A DNA stretch of 64,000 bases from positions 28,519-92,518 of the forward strand of contig JACQFS010000134.1 of the NCBI GenBank assembly GCA_016199935.1, given 5' to 3'. The position numbers and the translations under genes are program-made. This stretch comes from Verrucomicrobiota bacterium (GTDB taxonomy: Bacteria; Verrucomicrobiota; Verrucomicrobiia; Limisphaerales; JACQFS01). This document shows positions 1,491 through 57,506 of this stretch, in pieces; position 1 is the first letter of the stretch, and each line of letters opens with the position of its first letter. The notes under the pieces were generated by a model. That model was given only the letters and a program-made list of their open reading frames with translations, ran no database searches and was not told the origin of the DNA.

Positions 1491-3464
1491 ATGTTTCTCA
1501 AATTTTTCGCCCCGATTTTTTGCCTCCTCTTCTGCCCGTCCCTGTTCGCGGCTCCGGCGCCGCTGCAACTCATCGTGATGGACCCGCTGGCGTTGCAGCT
1601 TTCCTGCGCGTGCGTGAAGGGAACGGGCCAGCGGCGCTACAACGATCTCGCGGCGCATCTGGAAAAATCCCTCGGCCGCCCCGTCAAGGTCACCTACGAC
1701 GAAAGCCTCGAACTCGCCCGCCAGCAGACGCGCGGCGTCGCGGACCTCATCATCGGCCAGGACTCGGTCGTGCGCGGTGACGCGGCGAAGCTGAAGCTCG
1801 CGGTGCGTCCGCTCGCGGCGCTCACCAACCAGCGCGGCGACACGACGCTCAAAGGCGTGTTCCTCGTGCGGAAAAACTTTCCCGCCCGTTCGCTCGCGCA
1901 CCTCGCGGGCAAGCGCGTCAGCCTCGGGCCGGTCGAGGACGAGGAGACGCACGCCGCCGCGCAGCGCGCGCTCGCGGCGGCGAACATCCACGCGAACTTC
2001 AGGACCGCCGCGAGCATTGACGCCGCTGCGCTCGCGATGAACGACGGCGAGACCGACGCCGCGGTGGTTTCCGATTTTCTCCCGCCGTTGCTCGAAGGCT
2101 GCGGCAAGCTCGACCGGGGTTCGTTTCAAATCATCGGCGAGACGGAGTCGGTGCCGTTCATCCGCGTCTTCGCCAGTGACGCGGTGGACGCGGCGCTGGA
2201 GGCGAAAATCACCCGTGCGCTGTTCGACGTCGCGAAGGACGCGAAGCTGCTCGCCGCGCTCGAAAGCAAGTCGGGCTTTGTCCCATTGCGCGAGGAGGCG
2301 GTCACGGCGTGGACCGACTGGCGCGGGCCGGGGCGCGCGGGCTTCGTGCCGCAACTGCCGCGCGCGCTGCCGGACCAACTCTCGCCGCTGTGGGCGACGA
2401 TGCTCACCGGGCCCGCGATGGCGGGCGTGGCGGCGACGGAGCAGTTCGTCGTCGTGCCGGACAAGTCAGCGGATTTTCAAAAAGACGTGTTCAGTTGCCT
2501 CGACGCCAAAACCGGCGGCGTGAGGTGGCAGCTTGCTTACGCCGCCCCGGAGGAGGTGGATTACTCGAACGCCCCGCGCGCGACGCCGGTGATCCACGAC
2601 GGCCTCGTGTATTTGCAAGGCGCGCTCGGGCATTTGCACTGCGTCGAGTTGGCGACGGGCAAAGTGATTTGGAAAGCGAACGTCTTCGCCGACTTCGGCG
2701 CGCAACGCATCACGTGGGGATGCTCCATCGCGCCGCTCGTCGTGGACGACAAGCTCATCATCGCCCCCGGCGCGAAGGACGCCGCCGTGGTCGCGCTCGA
2801 TCGCAAGACGGGCAAGGTGATCTGGAAAACGCCGGGCCACGCGGCGGCGTATTCGGCATTCATCTCCGGCACGTTCGACGGCGTGCGGCAGATCATCGGC
2901 TTCGATGTCGCGGGCATCGGTGGCTGGGATCCGGCGACGGGCAAACGTTTGTGGGAAGTCGTGCCGACGGACGGCGCGGATTTCAACGTCATCACGCCCG
3001 TCGTGCTGGGCGACCAGTTGCTCCTCGCCGGCGAGAACAACGCGACGCGGCTGCACAAGTTCGACGGCCACGGCAAACTCGTCGCCGCGCCGGTGTTGAA
3101 GAACAAGGACCTGGCGCCCGACACCTGCACGCCCGTCGTCGTGAACGGAAAAATTTTCGGCACGGCCTATGGTGACTTGTTCTGCGTGGACGCGACGACG
3201 TTGAAGACGCTCTGGCGGCAGACCGACGAGATGTTTCACGACCACGTCACGCTCGTCGCCGGCAAGGATCGCGTGCTGGTGTGGACGATGTCGGGCGACC
3301 TCCTGCTCCTGGACGCGACCGCGGCGGAATACAAAGTGATCTCGAAGCTGCGCCCGTTCACGGACAAGCATCCCGACTCGATGGCGCACCCGGCGTTCGT
3401 CGGCGACCGGATGTATCTGCGCTCGAAGACGCAACTGATCTGCGTGCGGTTGCCATCTCCGTAA
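1491..3464 (+). CDS. Fusion of a PhnD-like periplasmic binding domain with a PQQ/BamB-like beta-propeller
   Basis: ATG 1491 starts a signal peptide (MFLKFFAPIFCLLFCPSLFAAP). N-terminal ~280 aa look like a PhnD-type binding protein (LQLIVMDPLA, KGVFLVRKNFPARSLAHLAGKRVSLG). The C-terminal part carries repeated G.V.W blade motifs (GGVRWQL, GKVIWKA, GKVIWKT, GKRLWEV, LKTLWRQ). Confidence 0.65.
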   Translation: MFLKFFAPIFCLLFCPSLFAAPAPLQLIVMDPLALQLSCACVKGTGQRRYNDLAAHLEKSLGRPVKVTYDESLELARQQTRGVADLIIGQDSVVRGDAAKLKLAVRPLAALTNQRGDTTLKGVFLVRKNFPARSLAHLAGKRVSLGPVEDEETHAAAQRALAAANIHANFRTAASIDAAALAMNDGETDAAVVSDFLPPLLEGCGKLDRGSFQIIGETESVPFIRVFASDAVDAALEAKITRALFDVAKDAKLLAALESKSGFVPLREEAVTAWTDWRGPGRAGFVPQLPRALPDQLSPLWATMLTGPAMAGVAATEQFVVVPDKSADFQKDVFSCLDAKTGGVRWQLAYAAPEEVDYSNAPRATPVIHDGLVYLQGALGHLHCVELATGKVIWKANVFADFGAQRITWGCSIAPLVVDDKLIIAPGAKDAAVVALDRKTGKVIWKTPGHAAAYSAFISGTFDGVRQIIGFDVAGIGGWDPATGKRLWEVVPTDGADFNVITPVVLGDQLLLAGENNATRLHKFDGHGKLVAAPVLKNKDLAPDTCTPVVVNGKIFGTAYGDLFCVDATTLKTLWRQTDEMFHDHVTLVAGKDRVLVWTMSGDLLLLDATAAEYKVISKLRPFTDKHPDSMAHPAFVGDRMYLRSKTQLICVRLPSP

Positions 3465-5177: not shown

Positions 5178-6614
5178 ATGATCCATCCCACGTGCCAGGA
5201 CCTTCAGATGCGGCCCGAAGATTTGTTCCTTAATCGCCGCCAGTTCCTCAACCGCGCGGGCATGGGCTTCGGCGCGTTCAGTCTCACCGCCCTCGTCGCG
5301 GCCGGGTTGCTCGATCCGGCCGCCGCGTTTGGCGCCGCGCCGGGCGCGAGCCACACGCCGCTCACGCCGAAGCAGCCGCACTTCACGCCCAAGGCCAAAC
5401 GCATTTTGCACATCTTCGCGTCGGGCGCGCCGTCGCAGATTGACACGTGGGATCCGAAGCCGGCGTTGAAGAAATACAACGACGCGCCGATGCCGGACGA
5501 CAAGAACGCCACCGGCTTCGCGTCGCCGTTCGAGTTCAAGAAGAGCGGCCGGAGCGGTGTCGAGACGAGCGAGGTTTTTCCTTAACTCGCCAAGCACATT
5601 GACGAGATGGCCGTCATCCGCTCGATGTATACCGACATGCCGGACCACGCCGCCGCGACGGTGATGATGAACACCGGCTCGACGCGGCTCGTGAAGCCGA
5701 GCGTCGGCTCGTGGATCACCTACGGCCTCGGCAGCGAGAACCAGAACCTGCCCGGCTTCATCTCGCTCTCGCCCGGCGGCATCGCGCCGGAAAATCTGCG
5801 CTCCGCCTTTCTCCCCGGCGCGTATCAGGGCACGCCGATCAACACCTCGGCCACTTCGATCGAGAAGATGATCGAGAACATCAAGAGCCGTTACACCTCG
5901 TTGCCCGAGCAGCGCCGCCAACTCGATCTGCTCAACAAGTTGAACGAGGTCCACGCGCAGAGCCAGCGCAAGGACGACAAGCTCGAGGCGCGTCTCCAGG
6001 CTTACGAGCTCGCGTATCAGATGCAGCTCGAAGCCACCGACGCGTTTGACATCAACAAGGAGCCGCAGGCCATGCGCGACCTCTACGGCGCGAACACGGC
6101 GCAGGGCAAGCAGATGCTCATCGCGCGCCGGCTTTTGGAAAAGGGCGTCCGCTTCGTGCAGGTCTGGCACGGCGGCTGGGATCATCACAACAATCTCGAG
6201 ACCGCCATGCGCCAGCGCGCGGGGGAAATTGACAAGCCCGCCGGCGCGCTCCTCACCGACCTCGCGCAGCGCGGGATGCTCAAGGACACGCTCGTCATCT
6301 GGTCCGGCGAATTCGGCCGCTCGGCCGCGGCGGACGGCGGCGTGCGCGGTGGTCAGTCGCCCGGCCGCACGCACAACGGCCGTGCCTTCTCGATGTGGCT
6401 CGCCGGCGGCGGCATAAAGGGCGGCACCGTCTATGGCCAGACCGACGACTTCGGTGACCGCGCGGTGGTGGACAAGGTTCACATCCACGACCTCCACGCG
6501 ACGATGCTCCAGCTCTTCGGCTTCGATCACACAAAGCTGACCTATCGCTACAACGGCCGCGACTTCCGCCTCACGGATGTTTACGGCAACGTCATCCAAA
6601 AAGTCATCGCCTGA
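5178..6614 (+). pseudogene. DUF1501-family (sulfatase-fold) protein interrupted by one in-frame TAA at 5583-5585
   Basis: ORFs 5103..5585 and 5607..6614 share a frame. Read-through gives SEVFP*LAKHIDEMAVIRSM, collinear with the intact paralog at 17262..18749 (SDFLPRTAAIADDLCFIKSM). Tat motif RRQFLNRAGMGFGAF; WHGGWDHHNN motif downstream of the stop. Confidence 0.6.
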
Positions 6615-10147: not shown

Positions 10148-10738
10148 ATGAAAACCACCTCGCTCGCACCCCTGTTGTTCGCACTGCCTCTGGCGCTCCT
10201 CACTCCCGGCTGTTCCACTGAAGGGGAACACCACCACGACCACGGCGCGGCCGCGCACGAATCCTCGTGGGCTTCCGTCAAGCAGCTCGCCGCCGTCATC
10301 AAGCCGACCGCGGGGAACCAGTGCTCCGGCGTCGTGCGCTTTACCGAGGTTGGCGACAAGGTTTACGTGTTCGCCGAACTCGAAGGACTCACGCCCAACG
10401 CGAAACACGCGATGCACATCCACGAGTTCGGCGACGCCACCGGCACCGACGGCATGAAGGCCGGCGGCCACTACAATCCCGAGGGCCACGCGCACGGCCT
10501 GCCCGAAACCGCCGCGCGCCACGCCGGCGACCTCGGCAACGTGCAGGCCGACGCCAACGGCAAGGCCACCTACCGGCTGACCGTGGAAAACGTCACGATG
10601 GTTGGATTGAAGAATCCCATCATCGGCCGCGGTGTGATCGTCCATGCGAAGACGGATGATGGCGGGCAGCCGACCGGGAACGCGGGCGCGCGCATCGGCG
10701 TCGGCGTCATCGGCATTGCCAATCCGCCGACGCAGTAA
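10148..10738 (+). CDS. sodC: Cu/Zn superoxide dismutase, lipoprotein form with a His-rich N-terminal stretch
   Basis: Lipobox LLTPGC. SodC metal-ligand blocks HAMHIHEFGD, GGHYNPEGHAHG, RHAGDLGN, IVHAKTDD. His-rich EGEHHHDHGAAAHE follows the lipobox. Confidence 0.9.
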   Translation: MKTTSLAPLLFALPLALLTPGCSTEGEHHHDHGAAAHESSWASVKQLAAVIKPTAGNQCSGVVRFTEVGDKVYVFAELEGLTPNAKHAMHIHEFGDATGTDGMKAGGHYNPEGHAHGLPETAARHAGDLGNVQADANGKATYRLTVENVTMVGLKNPIIGRGVIVHAKTDDGGQPTGNAGARIGVGVIGIANPPTQ

Positions 10739-48170: not shown

Positions 48171-48310
48171 GGGCCGAGAAGGTAGCGCAAAGCCGCGCCC
48201 CAACGCAAAGACGCAAAGCGGACACGCGGTGGCGCCGAGAATCGTCCATGTCGGGGGCGAACTTTTTCCATTCTCCCGTGCCGCCGTCCGCACTACTGTT
48301 CGCGGACCCA

Positions 48311-50350
48311 ATGAAACGACTTTGCACCCGAGTTTGGCTGGCGGCGTTTGGCGCAAGCGCGCTGACCGGCGCGGCTTCCGCGGCGAACGCCCCCAAGACG
48401 CCGGTGGATTTTTCGCACCAGATCGTGCCGATCCTCCGCGAGCATTGCGGCGAGTGCCACACGGGCGACAAGAAAAAAGGCAGCCTCTCGATGAACACGC
48501 GCGCCGACCTGCTCAAGGGCGGCGAGAGCGGCGCGGTGCTCGAGCCGGGCAAAAGCGCGAAGAGCAAATTCATCGAAGTGCTCATCACGAAGGACGACGA
48601 CGCGAAGATGCCGCCGAAGGGGCCGCGACTTTCGCGCGAGAAGGTGGAGCTGCTGCGCGCGTGGATTGATGGCGGCGCGCAATGGGACGACGGCTTCGCG
48701 TTCAAGAAGCCCGCGTATGAGCCGCCGCTCAAGCCGCGCCGGCCCGAGCTGCCCCGCGTGGTGCGCGGCCGCACAAACGCGGTGGACCGCATCCTCGACG
48801 CGCATCTCGCCCGGACAAAGGTGAAGACGCCCGTGGCGATCGGCGACGGCGAGTTTGCGCGGCGCGTGCATCTCGACATCATCGGGCTGCTGCCGGAGCC
48901 GGCGGCGCTGGAGAAATTTCTCACGGACAAGTCGAAGGACAAGCGCGCGACGCTCGTGCGCGAGTTGCTCGATCGCAACGTGGATTACGCCGAGCACTGG
49001 CTTTCATTTTGGAACGACCTCTTGCGAAACGATTACGCGGGCACCGGCTACGTGGACGGCGGGCGCAAGCAGATCACCAAGTGGCTCTACGCGTCGCTCG
49101 TGGCGAACGAACCGTTCGACCGGTTCGTGCGCGACCTCATCGCGCCGAATGCGGACAGCGAAGGTTTCAGCCGCGGCATCAAATGGCGCGGCAGCGCGAG
49201 CGCGGGGCAGGCGGTCGAGGTGCAGTTCGCGCAGGCGGTCGGCCAGACGTTTCTCGGCATCAACCTCAAGTGCGCGTCGTGCCACGACAGTTTCATTGAC
49301 CGCTGGAAACTCGACGAGGCCTACCGCCTGGCCGCGATCATTTCCGAAGCGCCGCTCGAAGTGCATCGCTGCGACAAGCCGAGCGGGCGCATCGCGAAAC
49401 CCGGCTGGCTCTTTCCCGAACTCGGCGACGTGGACGCCGCGCAGCCGCCCGCCGAGCGGCTCAAGCAGCTCGCCGCGTTGATGACGCATCCCGACAACGG
49501 CCGCGTCCCGCGCACCATCGTCAACCGCCTGTGGCACCGCCTCATGGGCCGCGGCATCGTGCATCCGGTGGACGCGATGCAGACCGAGCCGTGGAGCGTG
49601 GACCTGCTCGACTTTCTCGCCGTGCAGCTCGCGGATCAAAAATTTGATCTCAAGAAAATCATCGAGCTGATCTGCACGTCGCAGGCGTATCAGTCGCGCG
49701 CGCAAGTCGTGGCGAAGGACACGGACGACCACGGCTACAAGTATGCCGGCCCGCGCGCGAAGCGGATGACGGCGGAGCAATTTCTCGACGCCGTGTGGCA
49801 AATCACCGGCACGGCGCCGGCCAAGCCCGAGGCGCCCAGCGTCCGCGGCCAACCCGATCCCGCCCCGAAAGCCGCCGCGGCGAAGAAGGCGGACGTCGCG
49901 AAGAAAACCGCTGACGCAAAAAAGGCGGAGCCCGCGAAGAAGGCGGAAGTCGTGAAGAAGGTGCCGCCCGTCAAGCCCGTGCCGCAGCCGATGGTGCGCG
50001 CGTCGCTGATGAAGGCGGACCTGCTCCAGCGCACGCTCGGTCGGCCGAACCGCGAGCAGATCGTGACGTCGCGCCCGACGGACCTGAGCACGCTCACCGC
50101 GCTGGATCTCAACAACGGCCAGTTGCTCGCCGACCTGCTCGCGCGCGGCGCGGCGAAGATCACCAAAGAGCGCGGCGACTCGTCGGACGCGCTGGTGAAG
50201 TGGCTTTATCTTCAGGCCTTCGCGCGCGCGCCGTCGAAGAACGAGCTGGCCGTCGCGACCGAGGCGCTCGGGTCGAAGCCGACGGAGCAAGGCGTTCAGG
50301 ATTTATTGTGGGCCGTGGTGATGACGCCGGAGTTTCAGATCGTCCGATGA
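48311..50350 (+). CDS. PSCyt1 / DUF1549 / DUF1553-type protein (copy C, shorter variant)
   Basis: ATG 48311 with signal peptide. CGECHTGDKKKGSLSMN...KMPP; VDRILDAHL; CASCHDSFIDRWKLDEAY. Lys/Ala-rich linker (AKKADVAKKTADAKKAEPAKKAEVVKK). Family-typical end TPEFQIVR. Confidence 0.85.
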   Translation: MKRLCTRVWLAAFGASALTGAASAANAPKTPVDFSHQIVPILREHCGECHTGDKKKGSLSMNTRADLLKGGESGAVLEPGKSAKSKFIEVLITKDDDAKMPPKGPRLSREKVELLRAWIDGGAQWDDGFAFKKPAYEPPLKPRRPELPRVVRGRTNAVDRILDAHLARTKVKTPVAIGDGEFARRVHLDIIGLLPEPAALEKFLTDKSKDKRATLVRELLDRNVDYAEHWLSFWNDLLRNDYAGTGYVDGGRKQITKWLYASLVANEPFDRFVRDLIAPNADSEGFSRGIKWRGSASAGQAVEVQFAQAVGQTFLGINLKCASCHDSFIDRWKLDEAYRLAAIISEAPLEVHRCDKPSGRIAKPGWLFPELGDVDAAQPPAERLKQLAALMTHPDNGRVPRTIVNRLWHRLMGRGIVHPVDAMQTEPWSVDLLDFLAVQLADQKFDLKKIIELICTSQAYQSRAQVVAKDTDDHGYKYAGPRAKRMTAEQFLDAVWQITGTAPAKPEAPSVRGQPDPAPKAAAAKKADVAKKTADAKKAEPAKKAEVVKKVPPVKPVPQPMVRASLMKADLLQRTLGRPNREQIVTSRPTDLSTLTALDLNNGQLLADLLARGAAKITKERGDSSDALVKWLYLQAFARAPSKNELAVATEALGSKPTEQGVQDLLWAVVMTPEFQIVR

Positions 50351-53060: not shown

Positions 53061-53145
53061 TCAACGCAAAGGCGCAAAGACGCGGGAAGAGCAAATGAAA
53101 CGAAGCCCAACTTCCTCCGCTTGCGCCTTTGCGTCTTTGTGTTGA
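53061..53145. repeat. Imperfect inverted repeat built from 8-bp-periodic CGCAAAGN words, in the rnd / acyl-CoA-ligase divergent spacer
   Basis: Left arm TCAACGCAAAGGCGCAAAGACGCGGGAAG (53061-53089). Reverse complement of the right arm (53111-53145) is TCAACACAAAGACGCAAAGGCGCAAGCGGAGGAAG. Related words recur at 48185-48218. Confidence 0.6.
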
Positions 53146-53158
53146 AAAATTCCTTCCG

Positions 53159-54715
53159 ATGGCGGGGGTTCCAGCTAAAGGGTGGACACCGAACGGCGTT
53201 GTCGTTTCAATCGCGCCCATCAAGACGCCCTACGAGCACGACAATCTGCACGCCGCCTTGGCCGCGACCGTCGCGCGCGCACCGGGGAAGGTGGCGGTGA
53301 CCTGGGGCGACGAGGCGTTCACCTACGCGCGGGTTGCGGCGCAGGCGCTCGCGCTCGCGGCGAAATTGCGCGCCGAGTTCGGCGTGCGCGCCGGCGACCG
53401 GGTCGCGGTGTGGGTGAAAAATTGCCCGCAGTTTCCGTCGGCCGTCTTCGGCGTGTGGCAGGCGGGCGGCGCGGTGGTGATGGTCAGCAATTTCCTCAAG
53501 CCCGACGAGGTGGCCTACATTCTCGGGGACTCCGGCGCGAACGTCGTGCTCTCCGACCACAGCCTCGCCGAGCCGCAGGCGAAGCTGCGCGCGCTGCGGC
53601 CGGAGCTGCGCTTCGCTTTCATCGAAGACTTTTCCGACGAGGCTCCCGCCGATTTCTCCCCGGCCACGCAGACGAAGGCCGACCTCGCCGCCTTGCTCTA
53701 CACCTCGGGCACCACGGGCCGGCCCAAGGGCGCGATGCTCACGCACGGAAATTTTCTGCACAACGTCACGAGCTGCCTCACCGCGCTCGATGTCCACGAG
53801 ACCGACCGCATCGTGGTGCTGCTGCCGCAGTTTCACAGCTTCATGTTCACCGTGGGCACGCTGCTGCCGCTACTGGCGGGCGCGGGCGTGCTGCTGCTCA
53901 AGACGCTCCATCCCTTCAAGCACGTGCTGGAGGAAATCGCGCGCCATGGCGGGACGCTGCTGCCGGCGGTGCCGTCGTTTTACCGGACGGTGTGCGCGGT
54001 GCCGGAGTTCGGGAAACTGCCGCTGCGCCTGTGCATCAGCGGCGGCGCGCCGTTGCCGCTGGAGGTGTTCAAGGAGTTCACGGCGAAATTTTCCTTCCGC
54101 CTCCGCGAAGGCTACGGGCCGACCGAGAGCAGCCCGGTCGCGACGGTCAATCCCATCTTCGGCGAGAACCGCCCCGGGTCGGTGGGCGTGGCGATTCCGA
54201 ATGTGGAGTTGAGCATCCGCGACGAGGCCGGCGGTGAGCTGCCCATCGGCGCGAAGGGGGAGCTTTGCATCCGCGGCGGCAACGTGATGCGCGGCTACTG
54301 GAACCAGCCGGAGGAAACGGCGAAGACCATCCGCGACGGCTGGCTCTACACCGGCGACGTGGGCCACCGCGACGCCGACGGCTATTTTTTCATCACCGAC
54401 CGCAAGAAGGATATGCTGCTGGTCAACGGCCTCAATGTTTATCCGCGCGAGGTCGAGGAGGTCATCCACCAGTTTCCCGGCATCAAGGAGGCGGCGGTGA
54501 TCGGCGTGCCGGACGCGCGGCGCGGCGAGGCGCCGGTGGCGTTCGTGGCGCTGACCGAGGGCGCGGCGCTGGCGGAAAAGGAGCTGCTCCACTTCCTACG
54601 CGAGCGGCTGGCGGACTACAAGGTGCCGCGGCAGGTGAACGTGCTGCCCGCGCTGCCGCGCAACGCGACGGGGAAAATCCTCAAGACCAGTCTGCGGGAG
54701 ATGGTGAAGGGCTGA
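53159..54715 (+). CDS. AMP-dependent acyl-CoA synthetase / long-chain fatty-acid-CoA ligase
   Basis: AMP-binding motif LLYTSGTTGRPKGAMLTHGN; GYGPTESSP; YTGDVGHRDADGYFFITDRKKDML; C-terminal PRNATGKILK. Confidence 0.9.
   Translation: MAGVPAKGWTPNGVVVSIAPIKTPYEHDNLHAALAATVARAPGKVAVTWGDEAFTYARVAAQALALAAKLRAEFGVRAGDRVAVWVKNCPQFPSAVFGVWQAGGAVVMVSNFLKPDEVAYILGDSGANVVLSDHSLAEPQAKLRALRPELRFAFIEDFSDEAPADFSPATQTKADLAALLYTSGTTGRPKGAMLTHGNFLHNVTSCLTALDVHETDRIVVLLPQFHSFMFTVGTLLPLLAGAGVLLLKTLHPFKHVLEEIARHGGTLLPAVPSFYRTVCAVPEFGKLPLRLCISGGAPLPLEVFKEFTAKFSFRLREGYGPTESSPVATVNPIFGENRPGSVGVAIPNVELSIRDEAGGELPIGAKGELCIRGGNVMRGYWNQPEETAKTIRDGWLYTGDVGHRDADGYFFITDRKKDMLLVNGLNVYPREVEEVIHQFPGIKEAAVIGVPDARRGEAPVAFVALTEGAALAEKELLHFLRERLADYKVPRQVNVLPALPRNATGKILKTSLREMVKG
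54647..54715. repeat. Direct repeat copy 1 (last 22 codons + stop of the acyl-CoA ligase gene)
   Basis: 64 of 69 positions are identical to 55380-55448 by hand alignment. Confidence 0.9.
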
Positions 54716-54721
54716 GAACCT

Positions 54722-55051
54722 CTAAAGTCCGCGCGTCGTCACGTCAGCGGCGGCATCGTTCGAAACCTTCTTTCCAACCAGTTGGCGTGACACAATCAGG
54801 GCGAATAGAAGCCCCAAAACAAAACCTCGGACCAATGACAAATAACCCCACAAATGCGTCGACGACACGGGTAGTGTGATCCCCAAGTCTGATGCGAAGC
54901 CGTAGAGGGCCAGAAGGAAGACCGACACAGCGACAGCGAAAAACAACCAACGCGCCCAGGATGAACGGCATCGTGAGCTAACAAATGGTCCCACGAAAAA
55001 AGTAATCGCAGCGATCAAGTAGAGCGTGTGAATGATTGGCTTCATATTCAT
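54722..55051 (-). CDS. Small hypothetical membrane protein (3-4 predicted TM helices), low GC
   Basis: ORF 54722..55090. Hydrophobic stretches IIHTLYLIAAITFFVGPFV, WLFFAVAVSVFLLALYGF, LWGYLSLVRGFVLGLLFALIV. GC about 50% (30/60 in line 54781). ATG at 55051 or 55045. Confidence 0.45.
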   Translation of the reverse strand: MNMKPIIHTLYLIAAITFFVGPFVSSRCRSSWARWLFFAVAVSVFLLALYGFASDLGITLPVSSTHLWGYLSLVRGFVLGLLFALIVSRQLVGKKVSNDAAADVTTRGL

Positions 55052-55105
55052 AGAGATCTTGCACAGCTCAACGGCTGAGAGCTGAGACACGCCGCGCGGG
55101 CCGCT

Positions 55106-55342
55106 TCAATTCCTCGCCGAGGACGACGAACGGCCGCGCGGGAGGAGTCGCAGTTTGCTGATCTGCTCCACGTCGAGGATGTGGAGATGGTCTTTCGGGT
55201 CCACCACGATGAGCGTGGTCCGGCCCTCGGCGAAAACCGCTTGCTCCGGGTGCCGCAGGACGATGACCTCGCCATCAATCCGCAACTCGAAGGCGCGGAA
55301 CGGGCGCTTGTTCAGCGCGGCTTCCAGATTGGTCAGCTTCAT
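55106..55342 (-). CDS. Small hypothetical protein (78 aa)
   Basis: ATG 55342 gives MKLTNLEAALNKRPFRAFELRIDGEVIVLRHPEQ..., with G/C-rich third positions. The same frame stays open upstream to ATG 55771 (221 aa), through the duplicated ligase tail and the 21-bp array, so a longer product cannot be excluded. Confidence 0.45.
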   Translation of the reverse strand: MKLTNLEAALNKRPFRAFELRIDGEVIVLRHPEQAVFAEGRTTLIVVDPKDHLHILDVEQISKLRLLPRGRSSSSARN

Positions 55343-55379
55343 GGCCGAGAAACTATCAGGCGGTCCGGAACACCGCAAC

Positions 55380-55448
55380 CCCGCGCTGCCGCGCAACGCG
55401 ACTGGGAAAATCCTCAAGACCAGTCTGCGGGAGATGGCGAAGGGGTAG
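55380..55448. repeat. Direct repeat copy 2 (orphan copy of the acyl-CoA ligase 3' end, ends in TAG)
   Basis: Would encode PALPRNATGKILKTSLREMAKG*, versus ...REMVKG* in the real gene. No upstream ligase sequence is attached. Confidence 0.9.
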
Positions 55449-55495
55449 CGGACGGCTGCCCAAGCGGAGGTGTGTTGCGAGCCGCCCATCCGGGC

Positions 55496-55747
55496 GAACG
55501 GGCGGGCCGGGCGCACGAACGGCTCGTCCGTTGGGACGAACGGATGGTCCGTTCGTGCCAACGGATCATCCGTCAGGACAAACGGGCCGTCCGTTCGTGC
55601 GAACGGCTCATCCGTCCGGACGAACGGACCGTCCGTTCGTGCCAACGGATCGTCCGTCCGGACGATCGGGCCGGCCGGGCGCACGAACGGCTCGTCCGTT
55701 GGGACGAACGGATGATCCGTCAGGGCCAACGGATCGCCCGTCAGGCC
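55496..55747. repeat. Tandem array of 12 x 21-bp dyad-symmetric units with a 168-bp higher-order repeat
   Basis: Units start at 55496, 55517, 55538 ... 55727 (exact 21-bp phasing). Cores are AACGG-N-CCGTT or ACGGA-N3-TCCGT. Unit 2 equals unit 10, and units 1-4 resemble units 9-12. No spacers. Confidence 0.95.
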
Positions 55748-56143
55748 CGCCCAACCCTCGAAAATGCCCATTTTCCGACATTTTGGACGGCCCGGCGCCG
55801 GGTCGTCCCCGGCCGCGTGCAGCGGCCGGAACGATAGCCAAGGGCCGACACCGGGACCGGGGATTCCGTCGCCTGACGCTGCGCTCGGCGACGGGGACCA
55901 GCCAGCGGCTGGTCCCTACCTGGCCACGCTGGCCGATCTGCTGACCGTGGCGAACAAGGTCAACGAGTTCATCCTCGCGGCGCGGCAGCAAAGGCCCGGT
56001 TTTTCACCCCAAATGGCCCGCAAAGAGGCGGTCGGGCGCGGCCTTTTCCTTCCCATGCCCTTTCCCGGTTGACTGCCGGGGGGCGGCCAGTAGGCTCTCA
56101 CGCACTTTGAGAGGGCGTTCGTGCGCTCTCCGGAAGGAAATTT

Positions 56144-56329
56144 ATGCCCGAAGCCTACTGTGTTAAATGCAAAGCCAAGCGGGAAATGACCGACGCGGCT
56201 GAGGAAACCATGAAGAACGGGCGCAAAGCCGTCAAAGGCAAGTGCCCGACGTGCGGCACCGTGATGTTCAAAATCCTCGGCGGCAAGGCCACGCCCCCGA
56301 CCACTCCGCCCGCCGCGCCCCAAGCCTGA
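56144..56329 (+). CDS. Small zinc-ribbon protein (DUF5679-like)
   Basis: GGAAGGA 7 nt upstream of the ATG. MPEAYCVKCKAKREM...MKNGRKAVKGKCPTCGTVMFKILG has paired CxxC motifs matching my recollection of the DUF5679 pattern. Pro/Thr/Ala tail. Confidence 0.7.
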   Translation: MPEAYCVKCKAKREMTDAAEETMKNGRKAVKGKCPTCGTVMFKILGGKATPPTTPPAAPQA

Positions 56330-56333
56330 TTTC

Positions 56334-57506
56334 ATGTCGCAACAACTTGCCTACGTCATCATCACCCCCTACACGCTGTCCAAGTCACGGACGGGAGGGG
56401 TCATCGCCCGGCTCATCACGCGCACCGGGCTGGACCTGTGCGGTGCGCGGATGTTCGCCCCGAGTGCCGAGCTGGTGAAGCAATACGCGGAGGCCACGGT
56501 CTCCGCCAACGATCCGCAGGACCGGAAAATTCAGGAGCAGATCCGGGATTACATCCTCCAAAACCTTTCGCCCGACCCGAAGACCGGCCGTCGCCGGCGC
56601 GTGATGATGCTGATCTTCCGCGGCGAGGATGCGGTGCGCAAAGTCCGCTCCGTGGTCGGCAACATCACCGGCAACCGCCGTGGCGGCGAAAGCATCCGCG
56701 ACACGTTCGGCGATTACGTGACGGATGAAAGCGGCAACGTGCGCTACTTCGAGCCCGCCGTGCTCGCCGCGCCGAACGCCGAGGAGTGTGAGGCGAAGCT
56801 CAAGCTCTGGACGCGTTACTCGGACACCGACGGCGGCACGATGGACAACACGCTCACCTACGCCACGGACGAGAAGCCGCAGCGCACGCTGGTGCTGATC
56901 AAGCCGGACAATTTCAAGTTCCCGACTGGCCGGCCCGGCAACGTGATTGATTTCTTCAGCCGCACCGGCCTCTACATCGTGGCGATCAAGGTCCACCGCA
57001 TGAGCACGGCGCAGGCGATGGAGTTCTACGGACCGGTGCGCGAAGTTCTGCGCACGAAGCTCAAGGACGTGGTCTCGGGCAAGGCGAAGGCCGCGGTCGA
57101 GAAGGAGCTGGGCTTCGCGATTCCGGCCGACGCGCAGAAGCAGCTCGGCGACGTGCTCGGGCCGCTGTTCGGCGACAACCAGTTCGACAACATCGTGCGC
57201 TTCATGTCGGGCCGCTCGGAGAAGGAATGCCCGCCCGCCGAGTTGAACCAGCCCGGCAGCGAGAAGTGCATCGCGCTCGTGTATGAAGGCGTGGACGCGG
57301 TGAACAAAATCCGCGACGTGCTCGGTCCGACGGACCCGTCGAAGGCGCCGCCCGGCTCGATCCGGCGCGAGTTCGGCTCGAACATCATGGTGAACGCCGC
57401 CCACGCGAGCGACGCGCCCGAAAACGCGCAGCGCGAGATGGGCATCGTGAAGGTGGAGGAGAACACCTTCCGCCGGGCGGTGGAGGAAGTTTACGGGAAG
57501 GTCTAG
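56334..57506 (+). CDS. Tandem nucleoside-diphosphate-kinase-like protein (degenerate N-domain + His-containing C-domain with a large insert)
   Basis: C-domain: TLVLIKPDNF, GPTDPSKAPPGSIRREFG, NAAHASDAPENAQREM (NDK active-site His context). The N-domain has the same fold pattern (LAYVIITPYT...SIRDTFG) but no His at the equivalent position. Confidence 0.75.
   Translation: MSQQLAYVIITPYTLSKSRTGGVIARLITRTGLDLCGARMFAPSAELVKQYAEATVSANDPQDRKIQEQIRDYILQNLSPDPKTGRRRRVMMLIFRGEDAVRKVRSVVGNITGNRRGGESIRDTFGDYVTDESGNVRYFEPAVLAAPNAEECEAKLKLWTRYSDTDGGTMDNTLTYATDEKPQRTLVLIKPDNFKFPTGRPGNVIDFFSRTGLYIVAIKVHRMSTAQAMEFYGPVREVLRTKLKDVVSGKAKAAVEKELGFAIPADAQKQLGDVLGPLFGDNQFDNIVRFMSGRSEKECPPAELNQPGSEKCIALVYEGVDAVNKIRDVLGPTDPSKAPPGSIRREFGSNIMVNAAHASDAPENAQREMGIVKVEENTFRRAVEEVYGKV

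Follow-up and report, generated by a model that had tools for sequence, protein, structure and literature searches.

The window analysed here, a stretch of 64,000 nucleotides from a Verrucomicrobiota bacterium (GenBank assembly GCA_016199935.1, contig JACQFS010000134.1), contains an array of twelve head-to-tail 21-bp units. The array lies beside an inserted cassette, downstream of a gene for an AMP-binding protein of the acyl-CoA ligase type (hereafter the ligase) and upstream of a gene pair for a DUF5679 zinc-ribbon protein and a double-domain nucleoside-diphosphate kinase (NDK) (Table 1). On balance, we propose that the array is probably a lineage-specific, non-coding, hairpin-prone palindromic minisatellite, and that a passive hairpin cluster in read-through RNA of the ligase gene is its only probable effect. 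A neutral minisatellite had been named in an earlier annotation of this DNA, made from its letters alone (the sequence-only reading), as the outcome that would overturn its proposals. It is the best fit to the absence of the array from related genomes, the lack of covariation among its units and the lack of a consistent open reading frame (ORF) in related arrays.

The twelve 21-mers listed in that annotation are present at 55496-55747 without a single deviating letter. Of the columns of the unit, nine are invariant (A2, C4, G5, G6, C12, C13, G14, G18 and C21; plus-strand consensus GAACGGATCGTCCGTnCGGAC), and they cluster in the two arms of a dyad whose core, ACGG-N5-CCGT, is present in 10 of the 12 units. 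Unit 7 with its flanks indeed forms a perfect 10+1+10 palindrome, ACGAACGGAC-C-GTCCGTTCGT. Tandem Repeats Finder reported periods of 21, 42 and 84 bp (scores 188, 240 and 358), and the identity of the array with itself rises with the shift, from 0.68 at 21 bp to 0.75 at 42 bp, 0.80 at 84 bp and 0.89 at 168 bp, which indicates that blocks of two, four and eight units were duplicated as the array grew. Units 2 and 10 are identical, as the annotation had it, while the 168-bp super-repeat in which units 1-4 recur as units 9-12 is real but not exact (89% identity). The cores of unit 4 (ACGGATCATCCGT) and unit 11 (ACGGATGATCCGT) are exact reverse complements of each other. Allowing up to one mismatch, the core AACGGN4TCCGT was found 29 times in the window, 19 of them in the array, compared to 5.7 ± 2.7 matches in the whole of a shuffled window (0 of 100 shuffles reached 29). 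The ten matches outside the array, each with one mismatch, are not above chance, and the rest of the window holds no second array and, beyond chance, no dispersed units. The contig is metagenome-assembled, and the copy number of the array could reflect assembly collapse.

We compared the locus with five loci from related genomes (8-13 kb each), in which the NDK is 78-82% identical to that of the window. The DUF5679-NDK pair is kept in all five, and not one of them contains a phased core pair. The array thus marks a presence/absence difference between related genomes. The locus with the most similar kinase (L102, 82% identity) also keeps the ligase and the NUDIX gene, in the order RNase D-like, ligase, DUF5679, kinase, NUDIX, UDP-glucose dehydrogenase, TPR, and the window locus is syntenic with a relative's 1.96-Mb contig. 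The spacer between ligase and DUF5679 in L102 measures 226 nt and contains no 21-bp repeat; in the window, 695 nt separate the inferred original stop codon of the ligase gene (see below) from the DUF5679 gene. The four other loci (kinase 78-79% identical) have a different gene upstream of the DUF5679-kinase pair and spacers of 133-200 nt. A TTGAC motif, possibly a -35 box, is common to the window and all five loci and lies about 80-95 nt upstream of the DUF5679 start. Therefore, the array sits upstream of the TTGAC element, in sequence that is absent from the relatives. Aligning the spacers of the window and L102 gave no significant nucleotide match except at the DUF5679 start, and the spacers are too diverged at this level for the borders of the insertion to be drawn.

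Other features of these loci were noted alongside. The TTGAC motif belongs to a conserved element (window about 56060-56143; spacers of L102, L103, L131 and L132) in which a short inverted repeat of high G+C content comes next (GGGCGCATGGTGCGTC in the relatives, GAGAGGGCGTTCGTGCGCTCTC in the window). Judged by its sequence, this element may be a promoter with a 5'-leader hairpin. The DUF5679 gene of L102 (5544-5993) is called with 149 aa and a start overlapping the ligase gene, compared to 61-65 aa in the window and the other relatives, and its start is probably miscalled. L102 also carries a 42-bp minisatellite of about 9 copies (10286-10652), called as a 213-aa gene downstream of a TPR_21 gene. 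It is not visibly related to the window array, and between the TPR gene of the window and its neighbour there is no tandem repeat of similar size. Intergenic minisatellites seem to be particular to each genome.

We found no sign of compensatory change among the twelve units: 75.3% of the cells pair, compared to 74.2% in shuffles, and 195 of 500 shuffles reached the observed value. The pairs that always hold are those of the invariant core and are uninformative on selection either way, and of the 11 distinct units, only 5 keep the outer pair 1-17 and only 4 the outer pair 2-16, with one double change. The array nevertheless folds strongly on both strands (z = -8.3 and -7.5 against shuffles), with -4 to -12.5 kcal/mol for hairpins of single units and -180 kcal/mol for the whole array. 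The string of short hairpins proposed earlier is therefore physically plausible, but the units do not covary and the dyad is lost in a related array (L126, below). The array matched no Pfam, NCBIfam or Rfam family; the best Rfam scores (36.9 bits against a gathering threshold of 83) came from microRNA hairpin models.

Coding was assessed frame by frame. At least four reading frames had been said to stay open across the array; only three are open throughout, a fourth is interrupted by one stop, at 55713, and the remaining two contain two and three stops. That frames stay open is to be expected from a repeat unit that is G+C-rich, lacks stop codons and spans a whole number of codons. Third-position GC is similar on the two strands, as stated (0.79 in the minus-strand TDxPFxR frame, 0.78 and 0.74 in two plus frames), and the judgement that coding is not decidable from the sequence alone was right. 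The suggestion that the array encodes the heptapeptide N-terminus of a 221-aa minus-strand ORF, as stated, has to be rejected. This ORF is a chimera and not credible as a single gene; with the cassette removed in silico, it has 140 aa and ends in the antisense of the ligase gene. Related arrays keep no proper ORF either. Variability at the first, second and third codon positions of the TDxPFxR frame is 0.27/0.62/0.91 in the window and 0.58/0.92/1.03 in L038, a related array, and is flat in two others (L109 and L069), with second positions varying at least as much as first. As far as the units allow a judgement, this does not appear to be a pattern of purifying selection.

We searched for similar arrays elsewhere with nucleotide patterns and with the repeat peptide. 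Scanning a genome collection for three phased ACGG-N5-CCGT cores yielded 101 loci in many phyla, most of which are other minisatellites or coding heptad repeats without relation to the array. The enrichment of extra dyad pairs in this set is slight (mean about 2, 1.5 expected), so that its shared core is largely imposed by the search pattern. In a subset of the 101 loci, one frame gives T-[DE]-x-P-[FLWY], with scores of 1e-12 to 1e-23 when compared with the window peptide. A metagenome scan for two CCGTTCG-type units returned 21 loci, mostly chance two-unit matches plus a few short tandem arrays, with L109 as the only close relative of the window array, and a viral scan for such units returned none. 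An exhaustive HMMER search of cluster representatives with the repeat peptide gave 338 hits (best, P0121 at 4e-32). These form a heterogeneous low-complexity set in which the close hits are short ORFs whose tails are unrelated and for which no Pfam hit is recorded; no homologues sharing a non-repeat domain with the TDxPFxR ORF emerged. The zero hits of a word-indexed search with the same peptide are a false negative and not evidence; with low-complexity repeats as queries, this search cannot be relied upon.

The closest relative of the window unit is found in an intergenic array, L126 (CGTACCGACGATCCGTTCGTG; 18 of 21 bases as in the window unit), which was reached independently by the exhaustive protein search (P0121, 69% identical). 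Here every unit has an ACG-to-ACC change that destroys the dyad, and the array folds no better than shuffles (z = -1.5). P0121 (L126 4986-5792, 263 aa) has an in-repeat GTG as its sole possible start, and its tail is the antisense of a gene for an XRE-type helix-turn-helix (HTH) regulator. The genuine HTH gene (105 aa, 5445-5762, minus strand) lies beside SIR2 and type I restriction-modification genes, and the minisatellite appears to have caused the wrong-strand gene call P0121. L038, from a Verrucomicrobiia metagenome-assembled genome (MAG), has 14 units, starts 62 nt past a gene's stop codon and offers a TTG at the array edge as ORF start. L109, from a metagenome, has about 25 units that follow a strong terminator hairpin; its TDxPFxR frame contains an in-frame TAG, and the right arm of its unit decays freely. 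Four further arrays found through their proteins (L127-L130) are short and not embedded in another called gene, and their ORFs have no Pfam hit on record. Two of them, L127 and L128, are close to neighbouring genes, one of which the L128 ORF overlaps; in L128 and L129 the sole start is an in-repeat GTG, as in L126. The related arrays thus keep no consistent ORF. Five of them (L038, L109, L126, L128 and L130) start 50-100 nt past a stop codon. No flanks are shared among the window, L038, L109, L126, L069 and the protein-found arrays. A GAAAAT...ATTTTC hairpin adjoins the array in the window and in L126, two cases being too few to judge.

Several genomes carry 2-3 such arrays each. Tannerella MAGs from the termite gut (L043, L048, L084, L090 and L094) have several 21-bp arrays per genome: L048 and L084, from one genome, have the first unit GAATGATCnCnnCATTCGTG in common, L043, L048, L084 and L090 have the last unit ACGGATTTAACATTYAC in common with differing internal units, and L043 and L090 have a further 40 nt after the array in common, while L094 is without this last unit. 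By their sequences, the Tannerella arrays look like a modular multi-copy intergenic element. In Filimonas zeae (L019 and L039, the latter at 2887-3167), arms and linkers stay the same and the central loop is reverse-complemented (TTTT/AAAA, GGGTTT/AAACCC), even within one array, which suggests hairpin inversion by template switching. Similar 21-bp repeats may also sit inside real proteins. In P0132, an RnfB-like ferredoxin, the N-terminal domain and the 4Fe-4S domain enclose 16 in-frame RIDDPLA heptads, and the repeat unit, predicted from the protein, would be near-palindromic (about CGGATCGACGATCCG) if its codons are G+C-rich as expected.

We propose the following origin for the window array. 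A quasi-palindromic seed of about 21 bp would have been amplified by replication slippage and unequal exchange, and the duplication of blocks of two, four and eight units would have produced the 42-, 84- and 168-bp hierarchy. The dyad would be a property of the seed, kept by homogenisation and hairpin template-switching rather than by selection acting on base pairing or on the binding of a dimeric protein. Quasi-palindromes can be maintained without selection via hairpin flipping by template switching. The flipped cores of units 4 and 11 point to this process, which is a plausible reason for the persistence of the dyad. Read-through RNA from the ligase side would contain a dense cluster of stable hairpins that starts 47 nt past the original stop codon. 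Should the array act at all, such a cluster could stand in the way of RNA polymerase or 3' exonucleases and shield the ligase gene from the operon that follows.

Some observations weigh against a neutral minisatellite of this kind. The near-identical unit ACSGAYGRNCCGTTCGT occurs at unrelated intergenic loci of other contigs of the Planctomycetes-Verrucomicrobia-Chlamydiae (PVC) type (L038, L109 and L126), and pure local slippage is insufficient to account for this. All three differences between the consensus units of the window and L126 fall at third codon positions (a chance of about 1 in 27); the positions that vary among arrays are accounted for no less well by the loops and linkers of a hairpin layout than by coding. 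Over the array, the minus-strand TDxPFxR frame outscores the other five frames in codon usage, although its value of 0.25, which comes from twelve copies of seven codons and hence from very little independent information, corresponds to about the 99th percentile of off-frame windows and only about the 6th percentile of real in-frame windows. With flanks included, the score was 0.13 (55448-55771, table from eleven confident genes) compared to 0.20 with the first table (55449-55771). Finally, the array is not followed by a U-tract, and terminator calling gave nothing at this position.

The main rival explanation is that the array is one copy of a modular multi-copy element with tandem internal units between defined end units, one that spreads or is regenerated intergenically and is laid out like pneumococcal BOX elements or clusters of repetitive extragenic palindromic (REP) sequences. 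The near-identical units at non-homologous loci of different PVC contigs speak for it, as do the multiple arrays per genome and the Tannerella arrays with their common ends and the 40-nt tail at two loci. We nevertheless consider it unlikely for the window array: the 64 kb contain no second copy and no dispersed single units above chance, the window, L038, L109, L126 and L069 have no conserved common flanks, and no transposase or RAYT (REP-associated tyrosine transposase) gene lies nearby. True relatives were also few in the metagenome scan and missing from the viral scan, and the conserved core of the genome-scan set owes much to the search pattern. Less probable again is a minus-strand translation product of the array, a small disordered protein of TDxPFxR heptapeptide repeats. 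An ATG precedes the array by 8 codons, the frame has the codon score given above and a GC content of 0.74/0.54/0.79 at the three codon positions, the same peptide reading recurs in L038, L109 and L126 with consensus-unit differences mostly at third positions, and similar 21-bp repeats may lie in frame within real proteins such as P0132. Against this, the ORF is chimeric and its pre-insertion reconstruction runs into ligase antisense, no promoter-like site was found upstream of the array on the minus strand, and second codon positions are as variable as first ones or more. Nor do the related arrays help, given the in-frame TAG of L109, the in-repeat GTG as the only start in L126, L128 and L129, the TTG at the array edge in L038, and post-repeat tails that are unrelated to each other, lack any recorded Pfam hit and, in the case of L126, run antisense to a real gene.

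That the array offers phased sites to a dimeric DNA-binding protein (iteron-like, centromere-like or nucleoid-organising), one for every two helical turns, strikes us as very improbable. Plasmid iterons and parC/parS-type centromeres are direct repeats of about 20 bp in helical phase, and the twelve tandem units of the window, at exactly 21 bp, are in helical phase as well and within the size range of iterons (about 17-22 bp); the ACGG-N5-CCGT dyad in 10 of 12 units and the concentration of invariant positions in its two arms would also suit a dimer. The iteron or centromere array proposed in the sequence-only reading found no support in its context, however. Unlike plasmid and phage iterons or parC/parS sites, the window array lies at a syntenic chromosomal locus among housekeeping genes, has no replication, partition or obvious DNA-binding gene within about 10 kb, is absent from the corresponding locus in relatives and shows no plasmid or phage similarity (54716-56143 matched no plasmid or phage record). 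Among the confidently called genes from 39.9 to 62.9 kb, there is no ParA/ParM with ParB/ParR operon. Moreover, a dyad-breaking change is fixed in every L126 unit and the right arm decays freely in L109. The LexA box of Verrucomicrobia, TGTTC-N4-GAACA, in which every arm base is essential (PMC4951493), matches the array once only, with two mismatches at essential outer bases. We give a marginally lower probability still to a functional structured RNA, a string of hairpins serving, for instance, as a protein sponge with repeated ANGGA-like motifs or as a 5' leader that regulates the cassette genes on the minus strand. The strong folding of both strands, the presence of ACGGA in 6 plus-strand and 9 minus-strand units and the position of the array upstream of the cassette ORFs on the minus strand would agree with such an RNA. 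However, no Rfam family reached threshold and the microRNA-hairpin look-alikes were weak, the units do not covary, the array is not conserved in relatives and loses its dyad in L126, and neither promoter nor terminator brackets it. In known Csr/Rsm sponges the GGA motifs are not buried in stems; a Csr/Rsm-type sponge, which ACGGA might suggest, is disfavoured, as the GGA of the window units would sit in the stems.

We also compared the array with known repeat systems. It is not a CRISPR, as had been noted, because the units abut without spacers, and it is not an integron attC-like site, the R''/R' consensus being absent from its sequence. Bacterial minisatellites and variable-number tandem repeat loci, which include the mycobacterial MIRU-type intergenic repeats, resemble it in their head-to-tail units (10-100 bp), intergenic position, nested periods, restriction to one lineage and lack of detectable sequence constraint. 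Unlike them, the window unit is itself a near-perfect palindrome and occurs almost identically at unrelated PVC-type loci. BOX elements of Streptococcus pneumoniae have the structure boxA-(boxB)n-boxC; likenesses are the tandem internal stem-loop modules in variable number, the intergenic position and, in Tannerella, the conserved first and last units, whereas conserved end modules are not demonstrable for the window array or its PVC relatives. REP elements and the mosaic elements built from them (BIMEs) are likewise short G+C-rich extragenic stem-loops, often just downstream of genes and sometimes clustered (PMC3733652). GTAG-/CGTC-tagged palindromic repeats of this type occur in Verrucomicrobia, sometimes clustered; they carry an unpaired tag, number tens to thousands of dispersed copies and mostly form head-to-head or tail-to-tail dimers, head-to-tail arrangements being rare (PMC3733652). 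The window array does not belong to them: it has no GTAG, its CGTC occurs only in paired or loop parts, its units are head-to-tail and no copies are dispersed over the 64 kb. Hairpin clusters up to 80 nt from stop codons are reported to act as termination units, usually with two hairpins, larger clusters becoming rapidly rarer (PMC8355165). The start of the window array 47 nt past the original ligase stop and its stable hairpins fit this description, while twelve hairpins are an extreme number and the U-tract is missing.

As the sequence-only reading had described, the array adjoins an inserted cassette and an orphan copy of the ligase gene tail: 54647-54711 and 55380-55444 are 97% identical over 65 nt, and this direct duplication of the ligase 3' end flanks a low-GC insert on both sides. 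We infer that the orphan tail with its stop codon is the original 3' end of the ligase gene. The two cassette ORFs gave no Pfam or NCBIfam match. The bounds of the cassette (54647-55448) resemble the att-site duplication of an integrative element; an integrase is absent. Between the array and the DUF5679 gene, about 400 nt show no sign of coding. A NUDIX gene follows the DUF5679-NDK pair, and the genes within about 10 kb on either side (PSCyt/PSD1, DUF1501, RNase D-like, UDP-glucose dehydrogenase, TPR protein, phosphoglucomutase) are all chromosomal. The PSCyt/PSD1 gene (48248-50350) contains an 18-bp tandem repeat of 4.6 copies (GCGAAGAAGGCGGAAGTC) at 49880-49961.

Table 1. Positions of the 21-bp array and of the features around it in the window.
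Feature	Position	Strand	Remarks
AMP-binding (acyl-CoA ligase type) gene	53129..54715	+	upstream of the array
Low-GC insert	54716..55379	-	with one 65-nt duplication copy, a 733-bp cassette; adjoins the array, not part of it
Cassette ORF, 122 aa	54722-55090	-	membrane-like, atypical codon usage
Cassette ORF, 78 aa	55106-55342	-	native codon usage
221-aa ORF	55106..55771	-	in order: ATG, 8 codons, array as TDxPFxR, antisense of the orphan tail, separate 78-aa ORF
Orphan ligase tail (copy of the final 65 nt), with stop codon	55380..55448	+	TAG at 55446-55448
Spacer, 47 nt	55449..55495		orphan ligase stop codon to first unit
Array of 12 head-to-tail 21-bp units	55496..55747	none	higher-order periods 42, 84 and 168 bp
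Perfect 10+1+10 palindrome	55620..55640	none	centred on unit 7; strongest local hairpins (units 3 and 7) about -12.5 kcal/mol
Right flank without coding signal	55748..56060		codon score about -0.1
DUF5679 zinc-ribbon gene	56144-56329	+	
Double-domain NDK gene	56334-57506	+	

The value of the array is mostly cautionary. A stop-free palindromic minisatellite mimics a gene, with three open frames and borderline codon usage, and at the same time mimics a binding array. Gene callers in public data call such arrays as proteins, and in the case of L126 this hid a regulator gene on the opposite strand. The unexplained recurrence of the unit at non-homologous loci leaves a modest chance of something more interesting. 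We regard it as rather unlikely, though worth naming, that the window array belongs to an undescribed PVC family of tandem 21-bp hairpin arrays (core about ACSGAYGRNCCGTTCGT) that are actively generated at, or mobilised to, unrelated intergenic sites as a tandem counterpart of REP and BOX elements, which would involve a mobilising or binding protein; Bacteroidota may hold relatives of such arrays that have defined end units. If the unit does recur through mobility or because of a dedicated binding protein, these arrays would constitute a type of bacterial repeat element not described before, in a superphylum that has been little studied.

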